Virus record (IMG/VR): IMGVR_UViG_3300045995_000065
Span: 1 to 64,000 of that record
DNA: 64,000 nt
Strand: one strand, 5' to 3'
Source: a virus
Shown here: in pieces, positions 8,644 through 26,215 of the stretch
Numbering within the stretch: the first letter of the stretch is position 1
How the letters are laid out: the number at the start of each line of letters is the position of its first letter
The notes under the pieces: model-generated
The model's input: only the letters and a program-made list of their open reading frames with translations
The model's database searches: none
What the model was told of the DNA's origin: nothing
Made by a program: the position numbers and the translations under genes

Positions 8644-8673
8644 GCTGTATTTATTTTCGCCACTATACCCGTA

Positions 8674-8919
8674 TTATTTTGCAGTCTTAAAATACTTAGC
8701 AAAGTCTTGGTTCACAAACTTTTGCGATGCTGTCACGGTTTCGGAATACAAAGACGTACCAACATCAGTGAAAGCCTTTACAGCTTCCTTAGTGTAAGTT
8801 GCTTGCGTGTCGACAAACTTGTTCATTGCCTTTGCAGCCGCTTCATTCTTGACGAATGTAGTAACGAATTGCTTCTTGGACTTAACGACGGAATTGATGA
8901 AATCTTCTGGTGTAAACAT
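8674..8919 (-). CDS. Phasin-like (PHA granule-associated) protein
   Basis: 81 aa amphipathic helical protein FINSVVKSKKQFVTTFV..MNKFVDTQATYTKEAVK; AGGAG RBS; PhaR-type box upstream. Confidence 0.6.
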   Translation of the reverse strand: MFTPEDFINSVVKSKKQFVTTFVKNEAAAKAMNKFVDTQATYTKEAVKAFTDVGTSLYSETVTASQKFVNQDFAKYFKTAK

Positions 8920-8948
8920 AATATTCTCCTTAGACGAATGTTTAATAC

Positions 8949-8988
8949 TATGCAGCCCACGGAATGTAGCACTGCACAAAGTATTTAT
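8949..8988 (-). promoter_or_regulatory. Late promoter plus conserved 5' leader hairpin (shared with Hsp20 gene)
   Basis: ATAAATAC-TTTGTGCAGTGCTAC-ATTCC-GTGGGCTGCATA. Confidence 0.75.
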
Positions 8989-8993
8989 GTATT

Positions 8994-9010
8994 ATGCTGC
9001 ATTGCAGCAT
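8994..9010. promoter_or_regulatory. Perfect palindrome, PhaR-type operator candidate
   Basis: ATGCTGCA-T-TGCAGCAT (CTGC-N3-GCAG) between divergent promoters. Confidence 0.65.
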
Positions 9011-9078
9011 TTTTAGCAAGTATTCTGGCTAAATTGCTTTGCGCTAAATACTTGCTACATCATTTAAGGAGAATATAG

Positions 9079-9345
9079 ATGTTTAAGAAAATTATTGACG
9101 CTACAGTTGCGTTTTTCAAAGGACCACAAATTGCGCCAGTTGTTCCTGAAGCACCTTACAAATTGGAGGCACCAGTTGTTGTAGAAACTCCTATGGTAAA
9201 TCCAGTACCCGAAGTAGCACCAGTGGTTGAGGCAGTTAAAAAGCCACGCAAGCCAAGAGCACCTAAAGTCGAAGTTAAACCAGTCGCAAAAAAGCCAGCT
9301 GCTAAAAAAGCGCCGGCTAAGAAAACTACTAAGCCTAAAGCTTAA
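9079..9345 (+). CDS. Lys/Pro/Ala-rich histone H1-like protein
   Basis: KKPAAKKAPAKKTTKPKA; AAGGAG RBS; TAAATA at 9045 within inverted repeat 9014-9057. Confidence 0.75.
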   Translation: MFKKIIDATVAFFKGPQIAPVVPEAPYKLEAPVVVETPMVNPVPEVAPVVEAVKKPRKPRAPKVEVKPVAKKPAAKKAPAKKTTKPKA

Positions 9346-10298
9346 TCTAGTATCCCAAAGTTTGCCCAATTAGCGGCACCCAGACAAACCCAACCCATTG
9401 GTCCGCCCAAGGTTGGGTTTGTGTTGAATACAATGTGACCTTTTGTGCTGGTGTATGATGGCGGCTGATTTGCCGCACTCAGCTTAACACTGCCTATACG
9501 CAAGTCGGATATTTCAGTTGTGCCATCAGTATTCAATGTGATGTTATGTTTGTTGTTGGAAGATAATACCACAGCTTGTGCACGTGGTGTACCAATCTTA
9601 GCAACGCCCTCTTTATCCTTAGACACAGTGACTTCTACTTCTTGATCCCAAATACTGAGTGCAGCAGATGGCTCTAAAGTATTGATGCCCACTCGTTTCT
9701 TCGTTACGTACAGTGTATTGGCAAGCACTGATTCTCCGTCTACTTGTAATTCACGCAACGCTCCTACTTTTTGCAAAAAGCTTTCGGTAATATCAAAGCC
9801 AAGCATCTTGCCTTCAATTACCGTAACACCATCAATAGTAATCTTCTTTAAGTCGATTCCGTCTGCTTTGATAGTGTCGGTTACTTTTTGCGTGAAGCCT
9901 GCAAACATGTCAGCTTCCAATGATGCTTGAACATTAGCAGTAACCGTTGATGACAATTGTTTGTAAAACACAGAATCTTCTGGTACCGGGCCTTCAACAA
10001 TGAACTTGCCCTTGACAGTTAAGTCCTTGGTAAGCAAATTGTTTTCCACGACGGTAACATCGTCCATCAGTGTAAGTACGCATTCAGATGCACGATCGTC
10101 TATACCAGTAGAAGAGAAGTTAGCAATGATGCCGCCTTGAATCTGCTCGCCAGTAATCGTGATCTCGCGCTGTCTAACCGCTACAGCAGGAATGCTTGCA
10201 GTTGGATATTTTTCGCGCTTAAGGAGTTTTGCTGTAACAAAATCCTCGATGTATTGTTTAATCTCGTCTGTCAGTTCTGTTTGTGTTGAATCGGTCAT
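9342..10298 (-). CDS. Probable virion structural protein (beta-rich)
   Basis: 318 aa; RVGINTLEPS and GHIVFN..GWVC..W..FG motifs typical of phage fibre proteins. Confidence 0.6.
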   Translation of the reverse strand: MTDSTQTELTDEIKQYIEDFVTAKLLKREKYPTASIPAVAVRQREITITGEQIQGGIIANFSSTGIDDRASECVLTLMDDVTVVENNLLTKDLTVKGKFIVEGPVPEDSVFYKQLSSTVTANVQASLEADMFAGFTQKVTDTIKADGIDLKKITIDGVTVIEGKMLGFDITESFLQKVGALRELQVDGESVLANTLYVTKKRVGINTLEPSAALSIWDQEVEVTVSKDKEGVAKIGTPRAQAVVLSSNNKHNITLNTDGTTEISDLRIGSVKLSAANQPPSYTSTKGHIVFNTNPTLGGPMGWVCLGAANWANFGILD

Positions 10299-11034
10299 AG
10301 GTCTCGTCGAATTTAATGCTAACTACGTGTTCGTAATTCTTCTTGATAGGGCTCTTGTACATCAAATTCTTGTGTACAATGAAGTCGTCTGCGCCTGCGT
10401 CCATACTAAACTTTGCTAACTGTTTGAAGTACATTGTGTGGCGTTTGAATGAGCCATACACTGTCAACGAATCAGTCGCATTGTTAATCTCGTATACTTT
10501 GGATTCCCATTGTGTACGACTTGTTGTCGTCCAATTATGGAACTCATTGAATACCAAACTGTCTGCACCGTTACGGATAACTGCTGGTGTCGAAAACTCT
10601 CTATCTTTGAAATCTTGATTTTTGTAATCGCGTAATGTACTTATCACAAATTCTTTAGCCAAAGAACAAATCTTGCTCACTTTGTCAATTTGAGTTTGTG
10701 AATTGGTGGCATAGGTGAAATACTCATCAGCAGCCACGACGACATCATAAGACTTTTCAATCGCAGCCAATTGTATGTAGGTGTACTTGACTTTTTTCTC
10801 GTCTAAATAAGCACGGGCAGCATCACTTATCTCAGTGACGAATATTTCCTGCTTTACATTACTGCTAATAATTGCTGGATTAAATCCGCAAAAAAGCACA
10901 GTACCAGGAATGAAATTGTAGTAGTCATAAACACCGTCTAGTATAGCTTGTTTTTTAAGTATGATCTCGGCTGCTTTGCTCGAAGCCTTTAATGCGGATA
11001 AGTTAGCGTCAGTATAGTTTGTAAAATCAGTCAT
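10258..11034 (-). CDS. Hypothetical protein, possible degenerate SAM-methyltransferase fold
   Basis: 258 aa; VLFCGF, YDVVVAADEY; late promoter at about 11060. Confidence 0.5.
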   Translation of the reverse strand: MTDFTNYTDANLSALKASSKAAEIILKKQAILDGVYDYYNFIPGTVLFCGFNPAIISSNVKQEIFVTEISDAARAYLDEKKVKYTYIQLAAIEKSYDVVVAADEYFTYATNSQTQIDKVSKICSLAKEFVISTLRDYKNQDFKDREFSTPAVIRNGADSLVFNEFHNWTTTSRTQWESKVYEINNATDSLTVYGSFKRHTMYFKQLAKFSMDAGADDFIVHKNLMYKSPIKKNYEHVVSIKFDETYDRFNTNRTDRRD

Positions 11035-11062
11035 GCCATTATTGTAATAGTTGTGTAACTAT

Positions 11063-11980
11063 TTATGGCGAGCGCACTAAATCTAACGTAACGCAATGGA
11101 AGCCACCGCCCAACGTGCGTGAATGACGCAATTCAAGGGGAATAGATTCAATTTTGTACTTCTTTAGTGTTTGCATTAACGATGATTGTTTTTTATCTAC
11201 TATTACCAAATTAGGATTGACCACTAGCATGTTCATGGCAATCCATTTGCTTGCGTAAGGATACTCGTAAAATTGTTGCGGGACTACATCAGAATGTGAC
11301 ACCCAAATCTTTTCCCAATTTTCAAAAGCCTTAGGAACAGTTGTTGGATGCACACGGGATGCATTGAGCATTACGAGACCTTCACGTAGCGGCACTATAG
11401 TAGAGTCAATATGTACGCCGCTGTAAAAGTTACAAGTTTCTATTGTAACATGGGGGAGGATGCTTTGCAACCAGTCAGCAGCCGCTTTGTTGCCACTTGC
11501 GCTTTCCAGCACGACATAGGTGTCATTTAGTCTGCATACGTTAGCAGCATCAAGAACCATACCTTTGTTGCGCGGCATTTCGTAAACTACGCCACGCTTA
11601 GTGACATCTTTGAGTGCTCTGGTTTCCATGTCCCTGCATGGATACATCATTACTGGGTCAATGATCTTTGTGCCCGCAATGAGCAGCCTGTCTCGCGGAC
11701 AGTAATTGTACATACCACCTTCATAACCAAAGTCCATTTCTGCGGGACGCAGGACTTCTACGCCAAGGTTGCGAAGTGTGGTTGAGAGGGTTTCTAAGTC
11801 CTCGTTTGATTCGTCAACAACGTGCTTAGGTACACGACCAGACGGAACAGGAGTTTCGTGCCAGGTTGTTTTATATTTTTCTTCAGCAAAGACTGGATCT
11901 TTGGTGGGCCAATGTGCGTGGGTGGCATCACCTACTACGCAAACTTTAAGAGGGTCCCATTCGTTGTGTGAGTGTATCAT
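11063..11980 (-). CDS. Amidinotransferase (glycine/inosamine-phosphate family)
   Basis: SHNEWDPLK, YCPRD, DAAN, HIDST, RTLGGGFHCVTLD (catalytic Cys). Confidence 0.92.
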   Translation of the reverse strand: MIHSHNEWDPLKVCVVGDATHAHWPTKDPVFAEEKYKTTWHETPVPSGRVPKHVVDESNEDLETLSTTLRNLGVEVLRPAEMDFGYEGGMYNYCPRDRLLIAGTKIIDPVMMYPCRDMETRALKDVTKRGVVYEMPRNKGMVLDAANVCRLNDTYVVLESASGNKAAADWLQSILPHVTIETCNFYSGVHIDSTIVPLREGLVMLNASRVHPTTVPKAFENWEKIWVSHSDVVPQQFYEYPYASKWIAMNMLVVNPNLVIVDKKQSSLMQTLKKYKIESIPLELRHSRTLGGGFHCVTLDLVRSP

Positions 11981-12222
11981 TCGTATTTCAACTTTGCCCA
12001 GAGGCGGTGAGTTTCGTTTGGTATATGGAAGCTTGCACAGTTTCCCTTTTCGTCGGTCCAGTGGTTAAAGAACTCTGCTTGCACTTTTTGCATTTCGCAC
12101 CAATGGTGAAATTCATCAAACCATGCTGTAATGCCATCACGATCGCAGTTCATTTTAGCCACTATTATTTCGTGAGTGGGAACATTTAGTCGAAGCTCAA
12201 ATGGCGTTAATGTCATCGCCAA
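11977..12222 (-). CDS. Small hypothetical protein (F..LK[WY] family)
   Basis: WC..F...HRLWAKLKYE. Confidence 0.55.
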   Translation of the reverse strand: MAMTLTPFELRLNVPTHEIIVAKMNCDRDGITAWFDEFHHWCEMQKVQAEFFNHWTDEKGNCASFHIPNETHRLWAKLKYE

Positions 12223-12731
12223 CCTGTAATTTGCAGTGTGTAGCGATCTTCTTCGCCTAAGTTAGCCGCAGCATGTGGTGTGTCGTATTCCCACCACGCA
12301 GTTTGTCCAGCTTTCCAATCAACGATTGGTTTGCCATTTACTTCGGAGTAATGACCGCTTTTCCAATCTTCTAGGAATACCACGGCACGATTGATTCTGT
12401 GTTCGGCTCCAGCGAGACTATGTAGTTGAATATATTTGACATATAGATCAGAGTGATTTGGCATGACGGTGCCAGTGGCCATACGGTAATAAGAAGTCCC
12501 AACATTTTTCCATCCCATTGCTTCAAAGATTTTAATAAACTTTTTGTTCCAACTTGGCTGCTCTGAGCGCATATCGCACATAGCACCTGTGATTTTGTCG
12601 CTGTAACCCATTGCGAGCCACCTGCGTACACTCTCCTGGTCGTTAAACGGCTCGTGTATGTAATCTAAAGATTTAAATTCGTCGTCCCAAAATTTTGGGA
12701 GCATGAATTTATTTGATACGTGTGTTGCCAT
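12213..12731 (-). CDS. Fe(II)/2-oxoglutarate oxygenase-like (cupin) protein
   Basis: MPNHSD (HxD)..PHAAANLG..RYTLQITG. Confidence 0.75.
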   Translation of the reverse strand: MATHVSNKFMLPKFWDDEFKSLDYIHEPFNDQESVRRWLAMGYSDKITGAMCDMRSEQPSWNKKFIKIFEAMGWKNVGTSYYRMATGTVMPNHSDLYVKYIQLHSLAGAEHRINRAVVFLEDWKSGHYSEVNGKPIVDWKAGQTAWWEYDTPHAAANLGEEDRYTLQITGWR

Positions 12732-13944
12732 AATGGATCACCTTAATGTTTTTGTTTGTGGATGTATAAGTACGCCACGGATCAACCACAATGCTTCCGT
12801 CGTGTATGTCACAGTAGACACCTTGCTTTTGTCCACCTGCGTAACCGTAAGTTACGTTGGCATTATGCGCCAATAAAACTACACCAACTACTGGCTCAGT
12901 AGCGATATCGTTTGTTAACGGATCAACATAGAATGGCTTTGTGCCTGTTAACTGCTCTATGTAATGTCCTACTAGCAAGCTATACGACCCATCAGTGTAC
13001 GACACGTTAGGCTTGTATGCTTTGCCGTGTATGAAGATAGGCAAGTCATTGAATGCTGCTTTTTTAACCAGGAACAAAGCAAGGTTCTCTGCTTGAATTT
13101 CTCTGGCATGCATAATTGCGTCAAAGAGATCGTAACCTAAATTCAACTGCTCTGCTAAATGCCTTAGTGCAATGTTGTCACGTGGGTGGCAGGGCCCGGC
13201 ATCTCCCATCCCTGCGGTCATGTACTTGGGACCCATTATCCGCATCGTACTTTTTGCGAGCGCTGTGGTAACTACATCTACATTAATGTTACCTTGTTTG
13301 ATGGCCACATCTTGAATCATGTTGGCTAAACCAATCTTCGCGCTTATATAAGTGTTGTAGAACACCTTAATGCACTCTGCTTCGTCCCACGTTCCAACCT
13401 CGTAGCGAGGATCGTTTTGCATGATGGGCTTATAGAAGTCAATAAGCGTCTTAGCATCACCAGTCAACGATCCATCCTCTGTTCCTATGATGACCATTTC
13501 TGGATTAACCATATCCCACGCAACTGATCCCATTGCGATTAGGTATGGATTGTAAATAAACTTTGCATTATAAATGAGTGGTTGCAACTCACGGCGAACT
13601 GTACCTGGTAGCACAGTGGAAATGAGCACTACTAACTGATGCGACAGTGCAACTTTGTTGATTTCGAATAAAACATCTTTAACTGTCGCGTAATCAAAGT
13701 CTTTGTTTGGTAAATGGGCAATTGGTGCTGAGCCATCGTAAGCAGGATCGTGCGGCGTTTGCACTGCGACAAAAATGATATCTTGCCCCAAAACGGCTTT
13801 GTGCAGTTTGTTAACGATATTAATCTTGTCACTTGTCTTGGGGTAAATATCGTAACCAGTAACATTATAGTGCTCGCCCATTGCTTCTGCACATGGCATG
13901 CCTAACTTACCAATTCCAATAAACCCTACATTTTTGATTTCCAT
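12709..13944 (-). CDS. UDP-glucose/GDP-mannose dehydrogenase family
   Basis: GFIGIGKLG, VAVQTP, STVLPGT, AECIKVFYN, GPCHPRD. Confidence 0.92.
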   Translation of the reverse strand: MEIKNVGFIGIGKLGMPCAEAMGEHYNVTGYDIYPKTSDKINIVNKLHKAVLGQDIIFVAVQTPHDPAYDGSAPIAHLPNKDFDYATVKDVLFEINKVALSHQLVVLISTVLPGTVRRELQPLIYNAKFIYNPYLIAMGSVAWDMVNPEMVIIGTEDGSLTGDAKTLIDFYKPIMQNDPRYEVGTWDEAECIKVFYNTYISAKIGLANMIQDVAIKQGNINVDVVTTALAKSTMRIMGPKYMTAGMGDAGPCHPRDNIALRHLAEQLNLGYDLFDAIMHAREIQAENLALFLVKKAAFNDLPIFIHGKAYKPNVSYTDGSYSLLVGHYIEQLTGTKPFYVDPLTNDIATEPVVGVVLLAHNANVTYGYAGGQKQGVYCDIHDGSIVVDPWRTYTSTNKNIKVIHYGNTRIK

Positions 13945-15093
13945 ATGATTCCTGTTGATAACTTTTATAATGTATTGTACGCTAATCTATTTAACAAGTC
14001 TATGGACCCTCGGTTCATATATTTCCTAAATTTTACTACCAATGTTACCACATCAGATTTATTTTTGTCGTGGACTCCGATGCCCAGCGTAAACGTGTTG
14101 TCTAAAAATGACATAACTTTGTTTTACGACCAAGAACCAATTTTCTTAGAATCAACCAAGCAAGTGTTGAATTTAGTAATGACTCTGGATGAATGGCAAG
14201 AGCATTCTGGAAATATGATCCTGGGAAATTCGGAATATTCCGACGTAAAAACTAAACTGTGCGCTGAGCATAACTTCAATGATTGGTATTACTTTTACCA
14301 TGGATTTGCAGCACTAGATTGGTACCGGGATTACAAATATTTCCCTAAGAGCAAATTTAAATTTGATAAAGTATTTATGTCTCTTAATCATTTGATGACA
14401 ACTGACAGATCATATCGCTTAACTTTGGTTGCCAACTACATGCAAGAAGGATTAATGGGCAAGGGCATAGTAAGTTTGCCGTTACGTGACAAGAATAGAA
14501 CAATCAATGAAGAGCTATTTTCGCAGGACTCAAAGCTGTCCAAAGCAGCAAAGCGATTAGTGTTTGAATACCTTTCCCCGCTAACACAACCATTTATCGC
14601 TGATACTGAATACCCAGATGGTTATATGAGCGCAGCTACAGATTTTGATTTCCAACGCACAGCATTTTGGCATGTAGTAGCAGAGACTGTGTTCTACCAC
14701 AAGAAGCTGCATTTGACTGAGAAGATATTCAAGCCTATTATTGCTCGCCGTCCGTTCCTGTTAGTAGCAGCGCCAGGTAACCTAGCATACTTAAAGAGCT
14801 ATGGGTTCAAAACGTTCTATAAATGGGTAGACGAATCGTACGACAACGAGCAAGATGATGACAAGCGCATTGCTATGGTCGTCGCACAGCTAAAGAAGTT
14901 GTGCGCAATGAACAAGGACGACTTGTATGAGATGCAGCAAGAGATGGACGACATACTGGACTACAACTTCAATCACTTCTACGGCAATTTTAAGCAGATT
15001 ATTGTTACTGAAATGCTTGATAACTTCAAGAAACTACCTATTAACCACGGAGACATTAACTTCACAGAAGTATACGATCGCCTAATGCGCTAA
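13945..15093 (+). CDS. Glycosyltransferase-like protein
   Basis: FYDQEP, HVVAETVF..HLTEKIFKPI..PFLL..LAYLKSYGFKTF..DESYD. Confidence 0.6.
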   Translation: MIPVDNFYNVLYANLFNKSMDPRFIYFLNFTTNVTTSDLFLSWTPMPSVNVLSKNDITLFYDQEPIFLESTKQVLNLVMTLDEWQEHSGNMILGNSEYSDVKTKLCAEHNFNDWYYFYHGFAALDWYRDYKYFPKSKFKFDKVFMSLNHLMTTDRSYRLTLVANYMQEGLMGKGIVSLPLRDKNRTINEELFSQDSKLSKAAKRLVFEYLSPLTQPFIADTEYPDGYMSAATDFDFQRTAFWHVVAETVFYHKKLHLTEKIFKPIIARRPFLLVAAPGNLAYLKSYGFKTFYKWVDESYDNEQDDDKRIAMVVAQLKKLCAMNKDDLYEMQQEMDDILDYNFNHFYGNFKQIIVTEMLDNFKKLPINHGDINFTEVYDRLMR

Positions 15094-15100
15094 ATACTGT

Positions 15101-16015
15101 ATGAAAATAAATGAGATCATCTGCGAAGACGTGTCACAAGGCGACTTTGCTCAAATAGAGCGATTTGCTGATGCGCTATGGGGCAGGCTTGGCATTGACG
15201 TAAAATTTACTTGGCACTTCATGCAACGTGTAAACGATGTGCGCAACGGTAAGCCTATCACCACGGCTGAGCTTATTCGTATGTTCAAGAAGGAATATAT
15301 GAAGTACGGCAAAGATGTGTCTAGCATGGACAACTCAGTAGAAGCAGTCTTCAAAGATGCGATGACTGCTATCAACTTGCCATTCGTTATCAAAGACACC
15401 CCGCAAGGTAAAGAGCTTATCGCCAAGACTACGATGCGTAAGCCTAACTTTAAGACTCGTCCCGGCCAACCAACGTATGTCATTGACGATGTTAACTTGC
15501 CTAAAGATCAGTGGGAGACATTGATCTCTACTGCTGACAAAGAGGAGGTTGGTGACAACCTTGTGCAGTTAGTGCAGCAAGCATATAACGCTACACCTGA
15601 AGGTAGCTTTGTAAACAGTATGAAAGACGTCATCCCGTCTGACTGGGAAGTAATTGACTGGGACGGCGACCAAAGTATCAATGCCACAGTATTCTTCCGC
15701 AAGCCACGTGGCAATGAAAACTGGCAAGGCTATAAGATACAAGGGTTGGGTCACGATGGCCAACGTGCGTCTAAGGATCGCGCTATCAAGAAGATGATAC
15801 AGATGCTTGAGACTCGTGGTTATTGGTTAGAAGGATCAGACGCAATGCGGGCAGTGCTTAAACGTTACCAAGTCATTGCAGTGTCAAACGAGCAATTCCT
15901 GCAGCGTCTGTTCAATGACTCACAGCTACGCATGGTGAACCACGACACATACCAACGTAAACTAAGCAACCGTGTCATCACTGAATCTGTCTTTGGAAGG
16001 CCTATTCTGCGATGA
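15101..16015 (+). CDS. Putative head-internal protein, two modules
   Basis: MKINEIICE N-terminus; TAAATA 4 nt upstream. Confidence 0.7.
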   Translation: MKINEIICEDVSQGDFAQIERFADALWGRLGIDVKFTWHFMQRVNDVRNGKPITTAELIRMFKKEYMKYGKDVSSMDNSVEAVFKDAMTAINLPFVIKDTPQGKELIAKTTMRKPNFKTRPGQPTYVIDDVNLPKDQWETLISTADKEEVGDNLVQLVQQAYNATPEGSFVNSMKDVIPSDWEVIDWDGDQSINATVFFRKPRGNENWQGYKIQGLGHDGQRASKDRAIKKMIQMLETRGYWLEGSDAMRAVLKRYQVIAVSNEQFLQRLFNDSQLRMVNHDTYQRKLSNRVITESVFGRPILR

Positions 16016-16842
16016 AGATAAACGAGATCATTACTGAATTGCGCAAAGCAAAACCTCGCGAACCAAAAGCAGGTGATACAACTCCGCACGATTACAATCC
16101 TGGGTGGGAGACACTAAACTACCTTAAAGAGCAAGCATTCAAACAAGGTCAGCGTTTAGCTGAAAGCTATCAGTTATTCATGCCACGTAGAAACAATGGT
16201 GCGCAGCCAGCTCGTGATCGCAGGATGGCAAATATAGGAAACAAATGGGCCTGGGACGAAACTGATCCTACACAGCTTAAGCCGCAGTACGCAAGGTGGG
16301 AGCAGGGACAAAAGGATCTAAGTCCCAATGGTATGCAAGATGACGAAGTGACGGAAGCAGCACCAATACTAAAACCAGGTAAGGCAGAGTCTCCCCCTGG
16401 CAATAACAAACCACACGCTGACCTATGGACAAGCACTGCTAAACGTGGTGGTGATGGCGCTTACACAAGTGATTGGGTACGCTATGTCAATGATGCAGGG
16501 CACGATTGGATGGCACCAAAAGGTTACCTATACAAAGTCAAACCTGGTGCATTGATACTAGAATTAAACAGCGACCACGATGCTGAACGTATCTATCAAG
16601 CATTTGAAAGTTTAGGCACAGCACAACCTATTGACTACAGTAGTTCATACGGTAGATTAACAAAAGCATTTCCGTGGGATCAAGTTGTAAAACATTTTGA
16701 TGGTGTGCGCCACGGGGGATACAATAGTCGTGACGATTTTATATACGGTTGGGATTGTGAATCAACTGCATGGTTTAACACTAGCTTCTTAACATTGGTA
16801 GCGGAGGTTCCTATCTCCCGCTACAGGGAAGACGAATACTAA
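16012..16842 (+). CDS. Putative head-internal protein with ADP-ribosyltransferase-like module
   Basis: MKINEIITE; internal VTEA; LWTST..W..FDGV..GWDCES. Confidence 0.55.
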   Translation: MKINEIITELRKAKPREPKAGDTTPHDYNPGWETLNYLKEQAFKQGQRLAESYQLFMPRRNNGAQPARDRRMANIGNKWAWDETDPTQLKPQYARWEQGQKDLSPNGMQDDEVTEAAPILKPGKAESPPGNNKPHADLWTSTAKRGGDGAYTSDWVRYVNDAGHDWMAPKGYLYKVKPGALILELNSDHDAERIYQAFESLGTAQPIDYSSSYGRLTKAFPWDQVVKHFDGVRHGGYNSRDDFIYGWDCESTAWFNTSFLTLVAEVPISRYREDEY

Positions 16843-16843
16843 A

Positions 16844-17773
16844 ATGAAGATAAACGAGATCTTAACAGAAGAAGAGGCGCCGATCCTTCCCAAGCGAGTA
16901 ACTGACAAGGAGTTGGTTGCGCTATTGGGTAAGGGTAAGACCAATGCTATGCTTCGTCACCCTTGGTTCCAACGCTACTCCAACTATCAAAAGGCATACC
17001 GCTATGCAAAAGACAAATGGGGCTTTGTCACTGTTGACATGTTCCCTTTCTTTGTAGAGCACAATAGAACTCCTGATGGCGGCATTCGTCCTACCATCTA
17101 TGTGTCGTTCATCTTCTCTTACTCTGGTACCAAGGTAGTGCAAGCACATCAGTTTACACGCCCATTGGTGCCTGATGAGTTTGAATTGAATAACAAGATT
17201 ACTGGTGGGTGGCAGCACGGCACGACTTGGAAGGTAGACAAAGTAAAAGAAGATACTTACCAACCACCAGAGCTACACACTGGTGACAAGATTCTCAAGG
17301 GCAAGTTTAAGAACAGTCCCGCCACGATTAAAGGCTTCTCTAAAGACAAACACAACCAGCCAGTGCTAAAGACTGACAAAGGTGCAGTGCAATTGTTCAA
17401 GCCCCGTGTCACGAAGTTGATGACAAACGAATCAGTGATGCCTGGTACTTACGTGCACGAAACATCTCCAGAGAAGGCTGCGCAAATTGCAAAGATGGGG
17501 TTCAAGCCATCGTACGAAGGCATCTTCTTTAACCGCGACGGTACAGGTTACTCGGGTGGTGGTTACGGTGGCGCATTGATAACAGTGCAGCTAAACATCA
17601 CTAAGTTACTTGACATGGACGGTGACGCAGAAATGCCAGAGGACTTAGACGAGTTTGCTGATGGTGAAGAGATTGCCCAGTACGCACGTAGTCACGGTTA
17701 CCAAGCTTGGGCTGATGACTTACAAATCGCTGTACTTGACCCACGTTGCATCAAAATCGTGAGCATTAAATGA
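16844..17773 (+). CDS. Putative head-internal polyprotein with C-terminal ART-like module
   Basis: MKINEILTE; internal VKED and TNES junctions; YVHETS..IAKMGFK..GIFF..YG. Confidence 0.6.
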   Translation: MKINEILTEEEAPILPKRVTDKELVALLGKGKTNAMLRHPWFQRYSNYQKAYRYAKDKWGFVTVDMFPFFVEHNRTPDGGIRPTIYVSFIFSYSGTKVVQAHQFTRPLVPDEFELNNKITGGWQHGTTWKVDKVKEDTYQPPELHTGDKILKGKFKNSPATIKGFSKDKHNQPVLKTDKGAVQLFKPRVTKLMTNESVMPGTYVHETSPEKAAQIAKMGFKPSYEGIFFNRDGTGYSGGGYGGALITVQLNITKLLDMDGDAEMPEDLDEFADGEEIAQYARSHGYQAWADDLQIAVLDPRCIKIVSIK

Positions 17774-18639
17774 ACCTGTACGACTTATTTGAAGGCGCGA
17801 CAGACGTCTTGTATCACTATACCGGTATTCGCCCGGCTCTTAAAGTTTTGCAAAGTGGAATGTTTGAGCTAAGTCGTTCTACAGGTAATAAGTCTGAAGA
17901 GAACTATGCACCAGCAGGTTACGATTACTTCTTCTCCACTACACGCTCCAAGACTGGCGACTACCATCGCATGGTTGGCAATGGTGCAGTTATGTTCGTC
18001 TTAGACGGGCAGTGGTTTGGCCAACGTTACAAAGTAAAGCCTATTGATTATTGGGATCGCTCTTGGTTGCAAACTCACGACCGGACTCGCGAAGCTGAAG
18101 ATAGGGTATTCTCTAAAACACCTGCAATTCCAATTGGCGGAGTCCGTGCTATACATGCATTTATCAATGAGCATAACGAGTGGCGCTCTCCTGAGTTACG
18201 CACTATGCTATTGCAGGCTAAGAAACTTGGGTTGCCCATTTTTATGTATAATAATGAAGAGGCGTGGCGCTTGCAAGATACACGCAAGGCATTGACAGTG
18301 CAACAGATGGCACCATTGCTTAAGGGTGTTATGCCAGTGGCACACCAGTACAGACCAAGTACAGACTACATTAAGCCATGGCTGGAATTGATCCATAAGA
18401 AGAGCAAAGCAGACTTAAGCCCAGAAGGTGAAAAGTTGCGCTATAACTTGGTATACTACGGATCACGTTACGAGAACGAAGATAGCGGATTGGGCAATGC
18501 ATTGGCTAACGAGCGTAAGCCAGGTAACACTGGGTATGACTCTGCAACCAAGCTGATACAAGCGATGCGCCAATCTAAGTTAAACTCACCACTTGCACTG
18601 AAAAATGCGTTGTGCCAGAAGTGGGAAAATATTAAATGA
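17770..18639 (+). CDS. Putative head-internal ART-like protein
   Basis: MNLYDLFE; LYHYT..L..G.F; FFSTTRS; EAEDR (H-S-E pattern). Confidence 0.55.
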   Translation: MNLYDLFEGATDVLYHYTGIRPALKVLQSGMFELSRSTGNKSEENYAPAGYDYFFSTTRSKTGDYHRMVGNGAVMFVLDGQWFGQRYKVKPIDYWDRSWLQTHDRTREAEDRVFSKTPAIPIGGVRAIHAFINEHNEWRSPELRTMLLQAKKLGLPIFMYNNEEAWRLQDTRKALTVQQMAPLLKGVMPVAHQYRPSTDYIKPWLELIHKKSKADLSPEGEKLRYNLVYYGSRYENEDSGLGNALANERKPGNTGYDSATKLIQAMRQSKLNSPLALKNALCQKWENIK

Positions 18640-19379
18640 TCACAATAGAACCCTACTTAGAGTTCTACATCACCAACGTTTGTAACTTAGCTTGTAAGGG
18701 CTGTAATAGATTCAACAATTACAAGTTTAAAGGACATCAAACGTGGGCAGACCACGAGGCAGAGTATGCTAAGTGGTCTAAACGTATAACTGCTCCCTTC
18801 ATTACTATCATTGGGGGCGAGCCTACATTGAATCCCGACTTGGAAAACTTTGCTGCTGGTATACGTAAGCTATGGCCCGATAGCGAGGTGATGATTCAGA
18901 CCAATGGCACGTATCAACGCCCACGGCATATCAAATTTTGGAAGAATTACAAAGTGGGATACGGTGTGTCATTGCATGACCCAGCTACTGCTGATGACAT
19001 TAAGAAAACATGGAAGGACCATGGTGGGACATTTGACGCTTACGACTTTCATCAAGCAGCATTGATAGAGGATGGTGATAAGTTTTTACTTCATGACAGC
19101 GTACCGATTACTGCATTTGAGTTTTGCGATATGAAGCACGATCGCACGATGTTTAACGGAAAGCTATTCAAGTGCCCGTCAATGGCAACGATACCCGAGT
19201 TTAGAAAACAGTTTGATGTTGTGCTGTCACAGGATGATGAGACACTACTAACCTCTTACCAACCACTAAGTGCAGATTGCACTGAAGAAGAATTGCAGAC
19301 ATTTTTTATGGACAGGGATAAACCTATTCTGCAATGTAAGTTTTGCCCGCAAAACTTAGTGTGGGCTAAAGCTCTTTAA
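18636..19379 (+). CDS. Radical SAM protein
   Basis: CNLACKGC, GGEP, TNG, C-terminal CKFC. Confidence 0.9.
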   Translation: MITIEPYLEFYITNVCNLACKGCNRFNNYKFKGHQTWADHEAEYAKWSKRITAPFITIIGGEPTLNPDLENFAAGIRKLWPDSEVMIQTNGTYQRPRHIKFWKNYKVGYGVSLHDPATADDIKKTWKDHGGTFDAYDFHQAALIEDGDKFLLHDSVPITAFEFCDMKHDRTMFNGKLFKCPSMATIPEFRKQFDVVLSQDDETLLTSYQPLSADCTEEELQTFFMDRDKPILQCKFCPQNLVWAKAL

Positions 19380-19542
19380 CAACGTCTGCTAGGTGCGGAT
19401 AAAATTTGCGACCAGCATATCCATTATCGTCACCTAGCTTTGCTGCTAGTTTTTCTTTAATGTCTGCTTGTGCGGCCTCCCAACATTCACGAAGCAATTG
19501 AGAATCACTGTTGTGCTTAGTAGTCCACTGGTCATACGTCAT
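19366..19542 (-). CDS. Small hypothetical protein (58 aa, not in ORF track)
   Basis: MTYDQWTTKH..LLRECWEAAQ..KEL; GAGG RBS. Confidence 0.55.
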   Translation of the reverse strand: MTYDQWTTKHNSDSQLLRECWEAAQADIKEKLAAKLGDDNGYAGRKFYPHLADVVKEL

Positions 19543-19867
19543 GTTTGTCCTCTAGATTCAAATTTGCACGAGATACAATCTCGCTGTAAAAACTATCTAA
19601 CTCACCACCAAAACTTCCACGCATTATATTGTAATACGCAATGATTGAATCCCATTGTGAATTACGCAATGCATTTAAAAACACCTGGTGGTTTGCTTTT
19701 TGTTCTTGTAGCTTGTCTAAGTCCATGAATGCAAGCTTCTCAACAGGTACTACACAGAACGCAGTTAGTGGCACGTCAGACCCAGGCACATCAAAAGTTT
19801 CTAGCTCAACTAGTGTGTACCGTTGGCGTATTTCTTCTACACTCTCGGGATTAAAGACGATTTGCAT
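19532..19867 (-). CDS. Hypothetical protein
   Basis: MQIVF..RYTLVELETF..FGGELDSFY. Confidence 0.7.
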   Translation of the reverse strand: MQIVFNPESVEEIRQRYTLVELETFDVPGSDVPLTAFCVVPVEKLAFMDLDKLQEQKANHQVFLNALRNSQWDSIIAYYNIMRGSFGGELDSFYSEIVSRANLNLEDKHDV

Positions 19868-20393
19868 ACTTGGATAAATCCAACTGCTTGAATAATAGTT
19901 GAACACCCTTGGCTTGCGACTTACAATCCTCTACAGCATTGTGCAGTGTCTTAGATGTCTTGTCGCGTGGGTCTCCCAAAATACTAAACAATGTACGTGA
20001 GTCCATCACTTGCCAGAAGTCCCAGTTACGTGGCAACTCGTACATTTTAAACAATGTCTCAAGGATCGTAATGTCAAAGTGAGGACCTTGGCACCAAATC
20101 TTGTCTACTCCTACTAGGAATTTGTTCAATGCAACCAGTGTGTCGTATACACTGTGGCGGTCATCGGGTGACAAGGCTTCTTCCATAATAGCAGGATCTT
20201 GCTTGCCCCACCATTCCATTGTGTCCTCAGATACTTCACGACCACGCTCAATTTGATCGTCAATGTCCAATCGCATGTACAGTTCTTCGAACGGTTCCTG
20301 CAAAGTGAATGCATTGAATTTAACTGCGCCCAATGTAAGCACTACAGCGTCGTGTCCTGCTGATAGTGTTTCTAAGTCTAACATACAATCCAT
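19851..20393 (-). CDS. DEDDh 3'-5' exonuclease (DexA/Rv2179c-like)
   Basis: MLDLETL, QGPHFD, DSRTL, HNAVED. Confidence 0.88.
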   Translation of the reverse strand: MDCMLDLETLSAGHDAVVLTLGAVKFNAFTLQEPFEELYMRLDIDDQIERGREVSEDTMEWWGKQDPAIMEEALSPDDRHSVYDTLVALNKFLVGVDKIWCQGPHFDITILETLFKMYELPRNWDFWQVMDSRTLFSILGDPRDKTSKTLHNAVEDCKSQAKGVQLLFKQLDLSKYANRL

Positions 20394-20436
20394 TATTTTC
20401 TCCTAAATTAGATAAATAAACATAACGGGATCAATT

Positions 20437-21087
20437 ATGTTCATTAAAAACAAATATTCTAAATGGTATTATAGCATAATAGCTAATGCAACTACAAGAA
20501 ATTTGAGTACTTCTGTAAAAACTGAAAAGCATCATATTTTACCCAAATCCATCGGTGGCAATAATGAGCAATCTAACTTAGTCAAATTGACTTTGCGCGA
20601 ACATTTTATATGTCATAGATTACTGCCTAAAATGACTACTGGTGTAGCAAGAACCAAAATGATGTACGCAATATGGAAAATGTGTCATTCATCTGGTACT
20701 AAGAAACTTGCGTTCAAATTAAATGCTCGCACATATAGCGCAATTAAAGAAATGATGCGATCAGTTAGAAAGTCTGAGGATTTTACTCCAGAATGGCGGG
20801 CGAAATTATCTAAATCAAGACTTGGAAAAGGCACATGGAACAAGGGAATTGGGCGCACAAACGAAGAGAAAGAGAAAATGTCAGCGACACGGAAAGCAAG
20901 ATCTTCAGACCCGACATGGAATTTACGTCCTCCGTGCAGCGAGGAAAAAGCAGCGAAAATACAAAAAGCCAACTTAGGAAAAAAGTGGGCACACCATAAA
21001 GAAAGTCTCCAGCGAAAATATTTGTCACCAAATGACTTTCTTTCCTATATTACAAACGGATGGGAACCTGGTTTAGGAAAATTTTAA
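20437..21087 (+). mobile_element. Free-standing HNH homing endonuclease with NUMOD-type repeats
   Basis: EKHHILPKSIGG.N..NLV.LT.REHFICH; AT-rich; opposite strand with its own TAAATA at 20413. Confidence 0.88.
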
Positions 21088-21404
21088 TCTTCTTCCAAAA
21101 GTTCTTCGAGTTCAGGCTTCGTAACAAACTTACCACCAAGATCAGGGAACCATGTTGTATGGTACTCCTTGCCACCTAGCTTGTAATAGTCTGTCATTGA
21201 GTGCTGGTTGTTTGTTGATTTGAACGGGTCGATCATCTTGAGCAAAAGCATAATGTCTGTGTACTCTTGCCCTTCAATCTTGCGCATAGGAGGACCCATT
21301 ACACTGCGCAAAAACGCTTTGGCCTTAGCCGGGTCATCGCGCATTTCTTTACGGTGTCTCGCGAGACCTTCTTTGAGTAGAGTTAACTCGCTCTTTTTAG
21401 ACAT
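21084..21404 (-). CDS. Hypothetical protein
   Basis: ORF coupled to clpS. Confidence 0.55.
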   Translation of the reverse strand: MSKKSELTLLKEGLARHRKEMRDDPAKAKAFLRSVMGPPMRKIEGQEYTDIMLLLKMIDPFKSTNNQHSMTDYYKLGGKEYHTTWFPDLGGKFVTKPELEELLEED

Positions 21405-21714
21405 CAGCTTCAAGCTTGATAGCGAGAGGGAAACCGTTGTTACGTGCAAGCAATGTTACTTCCACGCCTTTTTGTTCTGCCAATTCGTATGGCAATGTTG
21501 CGGCAACTGCGGCGCCGTCTTCATGCACCTTTGTCATAATGTGCTCTGCCGTAACATCATCGTGGCCAAATACTGCCTTCAATGTTTCAATAACGAACTC
21601 CATTGTGGTCACATTGTCATTGACATAAATGACATTGAACAATGGTGGCGGTTGCACATCAGTGCGAGGTTGAATACGAACTTGATTTTGGATTTTGGTT
21701 GATGTAGAGGACAT
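21397..21714 (-). CDS. clpS: ClpS N-degron adaptor
   Basis: VIYVNDNVTTMEFVIETL, VHEDG, ELAEQK, FPL. Confidence 0.93.
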   Translation of the reverse strand: MSSTSTKIQNQVRIQPRTDVQPPPLFNVIYVNDNVTTMEFVIETLKAVFGHDDVTAEHIMTKVHEDGAAVAATLPYELAEQKGVEVTLLARNNGFPLAIKLEADV

Positions 21715-21728
21715 ATTTGAATCTTAAA

Positions 21729-21786
21729 TGGGGAGGAAAAGTCCCTCCCCTTGTTGCATTATAGCGTTTTACTTGTTAAAAGTCAA
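21729..21786 (-). terminator. Hsp20 terminator hairpin overlapping a sigma70 promoter for clpS
   Basis: GGGGAGGGACTTTTCCTCCCC-ATTT; TTGACT-17-TATAAT at the 3' end of Hsp20. Confidence 0.6.
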
Positions 21787-22218
21787 CGCGATTTTGCGTG
21801 GCTTCTTCTCTTCTGGTACTACGAGTTCCAGAGCAATAGCCAAAATGCCATTTGTGACATTAGCGCCACGAATTTCTACGTGTTCCGAAAGATTGAACAC
21901 ACGTTCGAAATTACGAGTGGAAATGCCTTTGTGAGCATAAGTAAGTTTTTCCTTATCCTCTGTGGCCTTTTTGCCGCTTACGTGCAAAGTGCCGTCCTTC
22001 AATTCTACGTCGAGTTCGTGCTCACCAAAACCAGCGACTGCAACTTCAATAACTGTGTTCGTCTCATCGATGTTTACAATGTTGTATGGTGGGTAGTTCT
22101 CGTTCGACTTGGCGGAATTGGCGAATGTACGATTTAGCTCATTGAACATTCGGTCAAAGCCGATAGCTGTACGATGAATTTCAGGTAGGTTAAGGGTGTG
22201 AATAGAAAAGTTTGTCAT
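21769..22218 (-). CDS. Small heat-shock protein (Hsp20, IbpA-like)
   Basis: AIGFDRMF, YPPYNI, AVAGF, HKGISTRNFERVF, NGIL. Confidence 0.95.
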   Translation of the reverse strand: MTNFSIHTLNLPEIHRTAIGFDRMFNELNRTFANSAKSNENYPPYNIVNIDETNTVIEVAVAGFGEHELDVELKDGTLHVSGKKATEDKEKLTYAHKGISTRNFERVFNLSEHVEIRGANVTNGILAIALELVVPEEKKPRKIALTFNK

Positions 22219-22223
22219 GTTGT

Positions 22224-22287
22224 TCTCCTGTTAAGCAAGTATGACTTTAAATGCAGCCCGATTATTCGGCACTGCACAAATATTTAT
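22224..22287 (-). promoter_or_regulatory. Late promoter, bulged-G leader hairpin and ROSE-like RNA thermometer
   Basis: ATAAATA-TTTGTGCAGTGCCGA-ATAA-TCGGGCTGCA..CTTGCT-TAAC-AGGAG. Confidence 0.75.
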
Positions 22288-22543
22288 TTTACACTCTTTT
22301 GCATTATATGCAACTATTATGGCTATTTTACTACTGTAAACTTTTCAGTAAGTTTTGGTGGGTTCATAATGAAGAACGACAAATCTACAGGATTCGAAAA
22401 ATGGTAATTAAGCTCGTAACCAGCAAGGTCAACTTCAAATTTGATTTCGTAATACGTTAGCCATGTAAGCATTTCACTTAGTACCATCATGCGCTTTGCC
22501 TTCCGCATTGACCCGTTTGGAATAATGAATTGAATATAGTCCA

Positions 22544-23734
22544 TCAATGTGCATCGCGTACAGTTTGTTCCGTGATCTCTAAGGCAGCGATTCCTTGCGC
22601 TTTCATCTCAGTTAAAGCGTACATATAGGGCATTAACGTGCGTTCCAGGATGCTTTTCAGCCCTCTTGCGCCCGTGCCCTGCTCGTGTGCTAACTCTGCA
22701 CAAGCTTGTATTGCACCGTCTGTGAATTTTAATTCTACGTCGTCAGACTCAAAGTAGAACTTCATCTGTGCGAGTAAGTTGTTGCTTGGTTCCTTAAGAA
22801 CACGAACAAAGTCTTCTACTGTTAGCGCATCAATTGGTACTGCAATAGGGAAACGACCAGTGAACTCTGGGATCATACCAAACTTGATAAAGTCATCAGG
22901 AATGAATGCAGCCGTGTTTACTTTGGTCGCAGTGTTACCAAATCCAATAGCAGAACCTTTTTGTCTACGTTCCACGATCTTGTCAAGGTCAGAAAATGCG
23001 CCGCCCGCAATGAATAAGATCTTGCTTGTGTCAATCTCAACCTGATCCATGGCAGGATGCTTCTTACTGCCGCCCACGCTTACTTTGCATATAGTGCCTT
23101 CTACCAATTTTAGTAATGCTTGCTGGACACCTTCGCCAGACACATCACGGGAGATACTTGCGCTCTCAGACTTCCTGCCAATCTTATCAACTTCGTCTAA
23201 GAAGACGATTCCGTGTTGGCATCGTTCTACATCATTATCTGCTGCACTTAGTAGGCTGCTAACGACACTTTCAACATCGTCGCCCACATACCCTGCTTCA
23301 GTTAGTGTAGTCGCATCTGCTACGACGAAAGGAACATTGAGGTAACGTGCGATTGTCTTAGCAAGCAATGTTTTGCCTGAACCTGTTGGCCCAAAGATAA
23401 GGATGTTAGACTTCTCTAACTCAACAGGGGACTCGAAGTAAATGCGCTTATAGTGATTCACCACGCCCACAGCGATAGCAATCTTTGCTGCATCCTGTCC
23501 GATAACGTACTGGTCAAGATAGGCTTTGATCTTCATCGGATCTAAAGCCTTCGTGATCTTTTTATCTTTGCGTAGAGCATCGTTGTGCTCTTTGTTTAGT
23601 ATGCTTGCACATAGTTCAATGCACTCGTTACAAATTCCCGCATCATTTGCGACAATAAGTTTGTCAACGTCTGAGCGGGACTTCCCGCAGAAGTTACAGT
23701 GAACTAATGGTGTCAGTGACAGATTTGAGTTCAT
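22544..23734 (-). CDS. clpX: ClpX AAA+ unfoldase
   Basis: C4 zinc finger CNFC..CNEC, GPTGSGKT, TEAGYVG, DEVDK, RDVSGEGVQQ, IGF loop, GARGL. Confidence 0.97.
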   Translation of the reverse strand: MNSNLSLTPLVHCNFCGKSRSDVDKLIVANDAGICNECIELCASILNKEHNDALRKDKKITKALDPMKIKAYLDQYVIGQDAAKIAIAVGVVNHYKRIYFESPVELEKSNILIFGPTGSGKTLLAKTIARYLNVPFVVADATTLTEAGYVGDDVESVVSSLLSAADNDVERCQHGIVFLDEVDKIGRKSESASISRDVSGEGVQQALLKLVEGTICKVSVGGSKKHPAMDQVEIDTSKILFIAGGAFSDLDKIVERRQKGSAIGFGNTATKVNTAAFIPDDFIKFGMIPEFTGRFPIAVPIDALTVEDFVRVLKEPSNNLLAQMKFYFESDDVELKFTDGAIQACAELAHEQGTGARGLKSILERTLMPYMYALTEMKAQGIAALEITEQTVRDAH

Positions 23735-26029: not shown

Positions 26030-26215
26030 TTATTTCCAGGGACGACCTGGGTTTAATGGAGTAGGACGGGGAGGATCTACCTGCGGATTGTCAATAGTGT
26101 GCAGTGCACGATAACCCACGGTTCCGGTTGCTGCTCGTTTTGCTTGAGCAGCGGCAAGTTTAGCGGCTACACGAGCCGCTTTTGTTGGTAATGTAGAGAT
26201 GCCGTTTTGCGCCAT
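26030..26215 (-). CDS. Small basic late protein
   Basis: MAQNGISTL..GRPWK; TAAATA 4 nt before ATG. Confidence 0.7.
   Translation of the reverse strand: MAQNGISTLPTKAARVAAKLAAAQAKRAATGTVGYRALHTIDNPQVDPPRPTPLNPGRPWK

Follow-up and report, generated by a model that had tools for sequence, protein, structure and literature searches.

The IMG/VR virus record IMGVR_UViG_3300045995_000065, a 72-kb piece of a large freshwater phage with a completeness of ~20% by CheckV, was analysed over its first 64,000 nucleotides (nt), here called the window. Two unrelated genes on the minus strand of the window are preceded by similar leaders: one encodes an IbpA-like small heat-shock protein (sHsp) of 149 amino acids (aa; Hsp20, 21769-22218; PF00011, E 2.2e-15), the other a small helical protein of 81 aa that is at best remotely phasin-like (P0001, 8674-8919). 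We consider it probable that both leaders are members of one short, two-hairpin family of ROSE-type 5' untranslated regions (UTRs) that controls translation, in which the second hairpin (hairpin II) would sense temperature and the first (hairpin I) would serve the fold or the protection of the 5' end. The RNA family has covarying stems, lies over the Shine-Dalgarno (SD) sequence and is linked to both gene families, in the window and in related phages.

From hairpin I to the AUG, the leader of the phasin-like gene spans 8917-8981 and that of Hsp20 22216-22281, both on the minus strand. Read on that strand, the former begins cATAAATAc-UUUGUGCAGU-G-CUAC-AUUCC-GUGG-GCUGCAU and the latter aATAAATA-UUUGUGCAGU-G-CCGA-AUAA-UCGG-GCUGCAU. 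Hairpin I of the phasin-like leader (8948-8979, minus) consists of the outer stem UUGUGCAGU/GCUGCAUAG, a bulged G at 8970, the inner stem CUAC/GUGG and the loop AUUCC; its counterpart before Hsp20 (22251-22277, minus) has the outer stem GUGCAGU/GCUGCAU, a bulged G at 22270, the inner stem CCGA/UCGG and the loop AUAA. The common bulged-G hairpin reported in a preliminary description, which was made from the letters of the window, is therefore borne out, as is the remark that three inner pairs differ yet stay paired (U.G/C-G, A-U/G-C and C-G/A-U). Each hairpin I has a fold energy of -14.1 kcal/mol, and equally stable folds arose in 3 of 200 shuffles of the phasin-like sequence (z -2.43) and in 1 of 200 shuffles of the Hsp20 sequence (z -3.57). 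The exact 11-mer TTGTGCAGTGC is confined to two places in the window, which are the two leaders, on the same strand. Likewise, the gapped pattern TGTGCAGTGC-N8-18-GGCTGCA is found exactly at two places in the 72-kb record, again the two leaders, and with two mismatches at one place (26098-26132, plus strand); the reversed-pattern control gave no place in the record.

Downstream of hairpin I, both leaders fold into a hairpin II that contains the SD sequence, and the covariance-model alignments agree with this fold. Before Hsp20, hairpin II (22225-22239, minus) reads CUUGCU-UAAC-AGGAG, with the SD letters GGAG at 22225-22228; according to the alignments to Rfam and to model R3 (see below), it is the canonical U(U/C)GCU anti-SD. 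The pairing of CUUGCU with AGGAG at the Hsp20 ribosome-binding site, noted earlier, is thus present. In the phasin-like leader, the minimum free energy (MFE) fold gives a hairpin II (8923-8939, minus) of the form AUUC-G-UC-UAAG-GA-GAAU, which covers the GAG of the SD sequence (GGAG at 8926-8929). A bulged G opposite the SD sequence is predicted in both cases, G22236 by the Rfam and R3 alignments and G8935 by the MFE fold. Moreover, ViennaRNA predicts that the AUG of either leader is paired with a CAU lying upstream of it (AAACAU/AUGUUU and GUCAU/AUGAC).

A search of the Hsp20 leader against Rfam returned the ROSE_3 family (RF02523) from end to end, over all 69 model positions (22213-22278, minus; 28.0 bits; E 3.3e-4 in a 201-nt search), and leaders of related Hsp20 genes scored 34.1 bits (L017) and 29.6 bits (L008). 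Because ROSE_3 aligns hairpin for hairpin with the Hsp20 leader, the hairpin flagged in the preliminary description is the first of the two hairpins, hairpin I, in a short leader of the ROSE type. That description had seen a ROSE signature in the flagged hairpin; a cis element of the ROSE kind it is, but the signature U(U/C)GCU with its bulged G lies in hairpin II. ROSE_3 is, as we take it, the short two-hairpin ROSE-like thermometer of Pseudomonas ibpA of Krajewski et al. 2013. The likeness comprises two hairpins in ~65 nt before an IbpA-type gene, an inner stem CCG(A)/(U)CGG that is identical in hairpin I of the window Hsp20 leader, and a hairpin II that sets U(U/C)GCU against AGGAG with a bulged G. 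The consensus hairpin I of ROSE_3, ..GAU-G-CCG...CGG-GUC.., has the same core of U.G pair, bulged G and C-G pair as the window hairpin. The element described here differs in being encoded by a phage and in scoring below the gathering threshold. Placement directly before an sHsp gene holds for the Hsp20 leader, whereas the second leader precedes a gene that does not encode an sHsp. In addition, the phasin-like subfamily has a conserved hairpin I of its own (CUGN-AUAGG-NCGG) and an alternative anti-SD, U(U/C)GUC.

The family extends to many other phages. Scanning IMG/VR with the Hsp20 protein gave 445 related stretches; the best 80 loci were retained and yielded 42 unique leaders. Hairpin I was located by a script that looks for a 5' bulged-G hairpin at least 30 nt before the ATG and thereby leans towards structure. 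A hairpin I of the form Y-G-C...G-G ahead of U(U/C)GCU...AGGAG was present in 41 of the 42, the exception being L062, with U/U mismatches in hairpin I. After hairpin I, these leaders continue with AAUCUUGCUUAA or AACUCGCUUA, then AAGGAG and the AUG. For the alignment, 33 of the 42 were chosen, leaving out L062 and the near-duplicates L014, L044, L046, L049, L051, L069, L080 and L082. In this set, 92.8% of the cells are paired, as against 19-53% in slid controls with the 3' partner moved by 1-3 columns; 8 of 10 pairs change on both sides, and none of 500 shuffles reached the covariation score. Two rows (L004 and L029) are misaligned by one column, a bias against structure.

The 81-aa family gave a similar result. 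A profile-driven scan of IMG/VR returned 448 related stretches, and the best 80 loci, many of them on contigs of 300-354 kb, yielded 66 unique leaders. A strict script found the bulged-G hairpin I in 59 of them; the anti-SD was U(U/C)GCU in 55, only U(U/C)GUC in 9 and neither in 2. The alignment comprised 44 of the 66, a choice that favours the canonical form: near-duplicates, L114 from the L084 contig, the atypical leaders L147, L158, L164, L165, L177, L189 and L190, and a subgroup of six unique leaders in which U-A replaces C-G after the bulge (core CGTC; L123, L133, L134, L140, L144 and L172) were left out. In the aligned set, 92% of the cells are paired, 7 of 11 pairs of hairpin I have changed on both sides, and the covariation score was again reached by 0 of 500 shuffles. 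Lack of covariation among homologous leaders had been named as a result that would speak against a common RNA element; covariation is strong in both gene families. Two distant relatives of P0001 from metagenomes illustrate the range. The leader of L104 (39% identical over the full length) has the canonical form AUAGAAC-G-CC-AUAA-GG-GUUCUAU, followed by AACUCGCUUAACAAGGAG, and that of L107 (37% identical) combines hairpin I with AUC-G-UC-UUAG-GA-GAU, the variant found in the window. In the closer, 88%-identical orthologue L084, the pairing of hairpin I is kept through two double changes from A-U to G-C, and four of its pairs are G.U. Homologues of P0001 at 96% (on a contig of 112.6 kb), 93% and 68% identity exist, and the metagenome scan yielded relatives at 37-54% only.

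Against this freely varying background, the core of hairpin I, a Y.G pair followed by the bulged G and a C-G pair, is nearly invariant. Beside the bulge, 20 of 31 distinct Hsp20 rows have a U.G pair and 11 have C-G, and the corresponding numbers among the 44 phasin-like rows are 29 and 15; after the bulge, all 31 Hsp20 rows and 43 of the 44 phasin-like rows have C-G.

Covariance models link the two sets of leaders. Model R3 was built from the 44 phasin-like leaders of other contigs, the window and L084 having been left out. Applied to both strands of the window with filters off, it found the Hsp20 leader (41.1 bits, E 1.9e-8) and the leader of the 81-aa gene (24.9 bits, E 2.9e-4, model positions 1-65); the next match had 12.8 bits (E 0.37), and the remaining 8.4 kb of the contig gave nothing at E<=1. 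Since R3 matches only these two significantly, the record contains no detectable members of this RNA family other than the two flagged leaders. Hsp20 leaders of diverse other loci scored 17-32 bits with the same model. Model R2 was built from 28 Hsp20 leaders only, on an imperfect MAFFT alignment. Its top match in the window was the Hsp20 leader (16.1 bits), and it matched 76 of the 80 Hsp20 loci at the Hsp20 start, with no second site within 3 kb; the misses, L025-L028, have three hairpins. At the phasin-like loci, R2 matched 64 of 80 at E<=1, always ending at the ATG of a gene of the 81-aa type, with 40.7 bits (E 1.1e-7) in L104. A covariance-model search of phage genomes and Rfam had been proposed at the outset; the models indeed recognise leaders of both families, but the match to Rfam ROSE_3 is below threshold and there is none for the phasin-like leader.

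The pairing of the two genes is conserved. In five jumbo-phage records (G001-G005; 320-354 kb, 92-100% complete by CheckV), R3 found the phasin-like leader in all five at 58-83 bits, as expected by construction, and one further strong match in each (30-45 bits, E 1.3e-8 to 6.8e-5), 13-22 kb away. In 5 of 5 genomes this second match lies directly before an IbpA-like Hsp20 of 148-152 aa. A two-gene set with one leader type is therefore conserved in this phage group. The small phage regulon of Hsp20 and the 81-aa gene, suggested previously from the window, is supported by these genomes and by the fact that models of either family recognise the leaders of the other.

Some further matches and motifs were recorded in these scans. 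In L105 (718-1758), a ROSE leader is followed by an Hsp20 gene (167 aa), a 52-aa open reading frame (ORF) and a phasin-like gene without a ROSE leader of its own, which may be co-transcribed; R2 matches in L095 and L096 lie upstream of the phasin-like gene at an equivalent position, judged by position only. Weaker R3 matches of 18-21 bits (G001 317150-317197, L205; G002 56323-56370, L207; G002 118785-118846, L204) lie before ORFs of 228-233 aa and 75 aa; they show a stem resembling that of hairpin I and may be further members or chance matches. In some Hsp20 leaders (L019, L025, L048, L049, L062, L069 and L077), hairpins I and II are separated by a third one (CGCCGG...CGGC). At a distance of ~1.1 kb on the upstream side of Hsp20 (~1927 in L019; ~1859 in L069, L070, L072 and L074), a further copy of AATAAATA is followed by a bulged-G hairpin, AUGAUG-G-UC-AAAAG-GG-CAUCGU, which precedes another gene and lacks the U(U/C)GCU motif. 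In viral contigs, the 20-mer AAACATTCGTCTAAGGAGAA from the SD region of the phasin-like gene was found only in the L084 contig and at 401-420 of L112; the L112 copy is exact and lies before an unrelated lysine-rich ORF, without hairpin I.

Several observations weigh against the assignment of both leaders to one ROSE-type family. The ROSE_3 scores of 28-34 bits are under the gathering score of 43, and ROSE_3 did not match the phasin-like leader of the window at E<=10; nor did Rfam return a ROSE match on 42 kb of phasin-like loci (L104, L107, L084, L108, L101 and L105). A sub-threshold match to the abiF RNA was seen on the 165-kb phage contig L108 (16329-16366; 32.7 bits, gathering score 37). 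The model of hairpin I alone (R1) holds too little information: its top window match was the Hsp20 hairpin, at 12.1 bits (E 0.55), and the phasin-like hairpin of the window was absent from its 11 matches at E<=10. With R2, only the SD part of the phasin-like leader was aligned (8.2 bits). The anti-SD of this leader is UUCGUC and not U(U/C)GCU, and its bulged G in hairpin II stands in a different register relative to the SD sequence. According to ViennaRNA, the accessibility of the SD sequence rises only slightly between 10 and 45 °C; in the phasin-like leader, where A and G of the SD sequence remain mostly paired, the probability of being unpaired increases over this range from 0.08 to 0.22 for A and from 0.01 to 0.18 for G. 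For the Hsp20 leader, the program prefers an SD pairing of CUUG with CAGG, slightly off the ROSE register. The alignments behind the covariation counts are chosen subsets (33/42 and 44/66), and the hairpins of the first set come from the bulged-G script. The DNA occurs in public runs from riverine, pond and wetland habitats, and no RNA run is listed among the public runs that contain the sequence. Finally, the outer stems of the two leaders, identical in the window, differ from each other in the five complete genomes; because of this, their identity in the window is no conserved hallmark of the regulon. The best explanation of that identity is a local consensus common to the two leaders (TAAATA, then y-UUUGU-r-n-r-G), gene conversion involving both, or a combination of these.

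With these points considered, the ROSE-type reading still appears the probable one, and it suggests how the two genes would be controlled. At low temperature, hairpin II would block ribosome binding; warming, or another destabilising signal, would open it and thereby allow the joint synthesis of Hsp20 and the phasin-like protein. Hairpin II, which covers the ribosome-binding site in the predicted folds, is the likely thermosensor. Hairpin I would not act as a temperature sensor; most likely it would set the fold of the weak hairpin II and protect the 5' end of the mRNA, and it might also be the place where the IbpA-like Hsp20 binds. Thermosensing, mRNA stabilisation and feedback by Hsp20 are functions that we infer for these leaders. 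The accessible text of PMC3669281 describes a comparable division of labour in Pseudomonas ibpA: hairpin II is by itself sufficient for thermoregulation, and hairpin I, which does not melt with temperature, remains closed as far as 50 °C. When hairpin I is disrupted, expression is derepressed. The same source calls the role of hairpin I "not fully understood" and proposes help in folding or stabilisation of the 5' mRNA end. Classical alpha-proteobacterial ROSE elements and the E. coli ibpA thermometer have three to four hairpins, whereas the window leaders have two; they share the SD-masking 3' hairpin with U(U/C)GCU and a bulged G, and, in the available portions of PMC3669281 and 10.1101/2020.04.20.050740, their upstream hairpins are said to aid folding or repression.

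A different use of hairpin I is possible, though on balance unlikely: its core may be the binding site of the IbpA-like Hsp20 of the phage, free Hsp20 repressing both mRNAs and aggregates titrating it away, which would relieve the repression. E. coli IbpA binds and represses its own mRNA and those of ibpB and rpoH through structured 5' UTRs. The repression of its own mRNA acts through 5' UTR stem-loops, and altered upstream loops weaken it, according to the accessible part of 10.1101/2020.04.20.050740; in that of PMC10474464, Arg93 is indispensable for mRNA binding and Tyr34 matters. The Hsp20 of the window is 49% identical to E. coli IbpA and has equivalents of Tyr34, Arg93 and Arg97. In an alignment with IbpA and IbpB of E. 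coli K-12, the equivalents of Arg93 and Tyr34 are present in 7 of 7 phage Hsp20s, whereas IbpB, which lacks Arg93, has Q and F at the Arg93 and Tyr34 positions. The core of hairpin I is also conserved far beyond what stem stability needs. No RNA motif recognised by IbpA is defined in the accessible parts of PMC10474464 or 10.1101/2020.04.20.050740, the six unique phasin-like leaders with U-A instead of C-G after the bulge depart from the core, and needs of folding, or tertiary contacts to hairpin II, could account equally well for the conserved core. Binding of Hsp20 to hairpin I would be compatible with thermosensing, as a second layer.

Self-repression of the IbpA type, with feedback of phage Hsp20 on both mRNAs, is plausible from the residues that the proteins share. 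The likeness to the system of Miwa et al. and PMC10474464, as far as these sources are accessible, lies in an IbpA-like protein with the Arg93 and Tyr34 equivalents beside a ROSE-type leader; for the second target, the gene of a phasin-like protein, they describe nothing comparable, and the phage side is known from sequence. By analogy, a single regulator could act on several mRNAs with similar leaders. Carried to its full extent, this would mean that a freshwater jumbo-phage clade has a translational regulon of its own that senses both aggregation and temperature, Hsp20 reading the hairpin I core on both mRNAs until their joint release upon warming of the water or aggregation of phage or host proteins; we put this forward tentatively, as a rather doubtful extension. 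If it were true, the binding of sHsps to mRNA would have its RNA determinant in hairpin I, and small heat-shock proteins would gain a new co-factor in the phasin-like protein.

The word phasin itself requires caution. P0001 had been named a phasin, and no match that passes a threshold sustains the name. P0001 has no Pfam, PHROG or noteworthy NCBIfam match; PF09361 (Phasin_2) did not match it even at E<=10, and a six-frame search of the record with PF09361 gave nothing at E<=1. The 81-aa family comprises 436 cluster representatives at E<=1e-3. Among the best 150 of these, 10 match PF09361 at 16.6-22.6 bits, below the cut-off of 24.9; the matched portion of the profile is identical each time, and no second family comes up repeatedly among the 150. 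Of 13 family members, one matches PF09361 (E 0.013) and one TIGR01841 (E 0.022). ESM Atlas gave Phasin_2 only as a lead (0.88), and the family profile found nothing meaningful among PDB sequences (best E 1.2). The recurrent sub-threshold signal makes "remotely phasin-like" a fair description, as judged from the protein profiles. There is precedent for a link between phasins and IbpA, and nothing relevant on phasins and jumbo phages was found in the literature by title or abstract.

The sequence ahead of hairpin I bears on where the transcripts may start. The motifs cATAAATA (8982-8989, minus), which recurs ahead of hairpin I in relatives, and aATAAATA (22281-22288, minus) lie directly upstream of hairpin I, and TAAATA is present in 33 of the 42 unique Hsp20 leaders. 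A consensus scan gave a sigma-70-like promoter candidate, TTGCTA-17-CATAAT (8991-9019, minus; 9 of 12 matches), in which CATAAT is followed by ACATAAATAC and then by hairpin I. The phasin-like relatives L131, L139 and L161 have TTGACT-17-TATAAT, and many Hsp20 relatives have TTGACA-17-TATAAATA. The hairpin does stand directly after TAAATA, as had been described, but TAAATA is part of cATAAATA or aATAAATA and may sit just downstream of a sigma-70-like -10 box. T4-type late promoters have the consensus TATAAATA ~6-7 nt upstream of the start site; cATAAATA and aATAAATA each match this consensus in 7 of 8 positions. With both strands counted, ATAAATA has 12 copies in the 72 kb, a number that, roughly estimated from the base composition, does not exceed chance. 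ATAAATA may be a T4-like late promoter, a part of a -10 box or the first transcribed bases, each of which would put hairpin I at the mRNA 5' end or within a few bases of it. The promoter of bacterial ibpA is of the sigma-32 type; the phage element, in contrast, follows a TATAAATA/TATAAT-type box.

This position would suit another explanation, in which hairpin I is a mere 5'-terminal stabiliser of abundant phage mRNAs and neither leader senses temperature. The two window hairpins would then be alike because a module of promoter and hairpin was recently copied or underwent gene conversion. Hairpin I begins 1-3 nt after ATAAATA in both window leaders, and a -10-like box (TATAAATA, TATAAT or TACAAT) lies within ~12 nt of it in nearly all relatives; because it is so close to both, hairpin I would lie at the mRNA 5' end. 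Stabilisation of the mRNA was also proposed for hairpin I by Krajewski et al., in the accessible text of PMC3669281. Moreover, a third gene of the window, a 113-aa ORF without family match (50329-50670), is preceded at 50690-50723 (minus) by cATAAATA-TTT and a hairpin, AUG-A-GGCC-CUUCGC-GGCC-CAU, which has a bulged A and does not cover the SD sequence. The restriction of identical outer stems to this genome, as compared with G001-G005, fits local conversion. We nevertheless regard this explanation as improbable: hairpin I is always coupled to an SD-covering bulged-G hairpin II, in more than 100 unique leaders and two unrelated gene families; both families have kept the element in 5 of 5 complete genomes; and a stabiliser would not need an invariant bulged-G core.

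The region also holds a conserved DNA palindrome. A perfect palindrome, ATGCTGCAATGCAGCAT, lies at 8994-9010, inside the spacer of the promoter candidate, and the form nTGC-N3-5-GCAn occurs upstream of 49 of the 66 unique phasin-like leaders (L115-L193, ~60-100 nt before the ATG), L131, L139 and L161 having the same kind of palindrome; in some relatives it sits within the spacer of a TTGACT-17-TATAAT promoter, and it is absent from the five Hsp20 promoters of G001-G005. From its sequence, it looks like an operator for a DNA-binding protein, separate from the hairpin. The stretch 8976-9011 is flanked in run X3 by two loose ends, each supported by a single read (8976 'before', 9011 'behind'). 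If they belong to one contig, this contig matches only the 36 bases of promoter and palindrome and differs on either side of them, and the segment would seem to recur in another genome context.

The preliminary description had also considered a PhaR-like DNA box at +1, that is, an inverted repeat serving as operator for a dimeric repressor. TGCAG...CTGCA is an inverted repeat in DNA, TGCA-rich palindromes lie nearby (8994-9010 and 22299-22313), and the upstream palindrome is real and conserved. That palindrome, however, sits in the promoter as a separate element and not at +1. At the hairpin itself, the letters of the outer stem vary across relatives while the pairing is kept, the many G.U pairs of the sense strand (four in L084 alone) would be A/C mismatches on the other strand, and bulge and loop are asymmetric. 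A sense-strand RNA is favoured because of this free variation with kept pairing, the many G.U pairs, the asymmetry, and an element that always ends at the SD sequence and AUG; the DNA box was not supported, and we hold it to be very improbable. An intrinsic terminator or attenuator for upstream transcription, for which a stable GC-containing intergenic hairpin might be taken, is scarcely credible, since no U tract follows the hairpin, the terminator scan gave no site in 8600-9400 and one unrelated site in 21700-22600, and the region upstream of the phasin-like gene is divergent (ORF 9079-9345 on the plus strand), so that no co-directional upstream gene reads into its hairpin.

The remaining content of the window is that of a large phage: a DnaB-like helicase, a primase, ribonucleotide reductase, tail-fibre-like proteins and a ClpP-like protease. 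Hsp20 has as neighbours ClpS (21397-21714) and ClpX (22544-23734), which together with the ClpP-like protease (909-1523; phrog_94) form a phage-borne proteostasis set; a 74-aa ORF without family (22323-22547) lies between Hsp20 and ClpX. On the plus strand, an ORF at 20437-21087 matches NUMOD3 and HNH_5 (the latter under the Pfam cut-off), which suggests a homing endonuclease; it lies ~700 bases past the 3' end of Hsp20 and adjoins the ORF 21084-21449 and ClpS. Next after the phasin-like gene comes an ORF without family match (7342-8643, minus; 433-435 aa), which has a counterpart in the distant relative L104 (9340-10647), the synteny being judged from position and length only. Searches with blastn in distant mode of both regions against phage GenBank gave no match. 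Contigs from four DNA runs over 8500-22600 cover the leaders partly, with no leader difference among the matches listed.

ROSE-type thermometers are well known in bacteria, and ROSE-like thermometers before ABC (ATP-binding cassette) transporter genes, described in the accessible part of PMC11342760, provide a precedent on non-heat-shock genes, although these are bacterial and of another gene class. Known phage RNA thermometers, as listed in the available text of PMC11182007, are those of lambda cIII, SPbeta blyA (fourU) and a sigma-70 fourU element in gut Caudoviricetes, and this 2024 paper counts its own phage thermometers as the second and third known. They resemble the present element in being phage-encoded, in lying in the 5' UTR and in acting on translation; they are, in contrast, fourU or alternative-structure types on single genes, whereas here a ROSE type stands on two co-conserved genes. 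Among the papers listed in searches of the openly accessible literature, we found no description of ROSE-type elements in phages, hsp20 thermometers of cyanophages included. What is new is a phage-encoded, sub-threshold ROSE type with its own form of hairpin I, an alternative anti-SD and a second, non-sHsp gene family.

Taken together, where few RNA thermometers are known in phages, one ROSE-type family stands before two unrelated genes on many phage contigs, and a widespread, unannotated family of small phage proteins is tied to the small heat-shock response. The leaders also offer a large natural covariation set for hairpin I and a compact two-target system for the question of whether IbpA-type proteins read a specific RNA motif.

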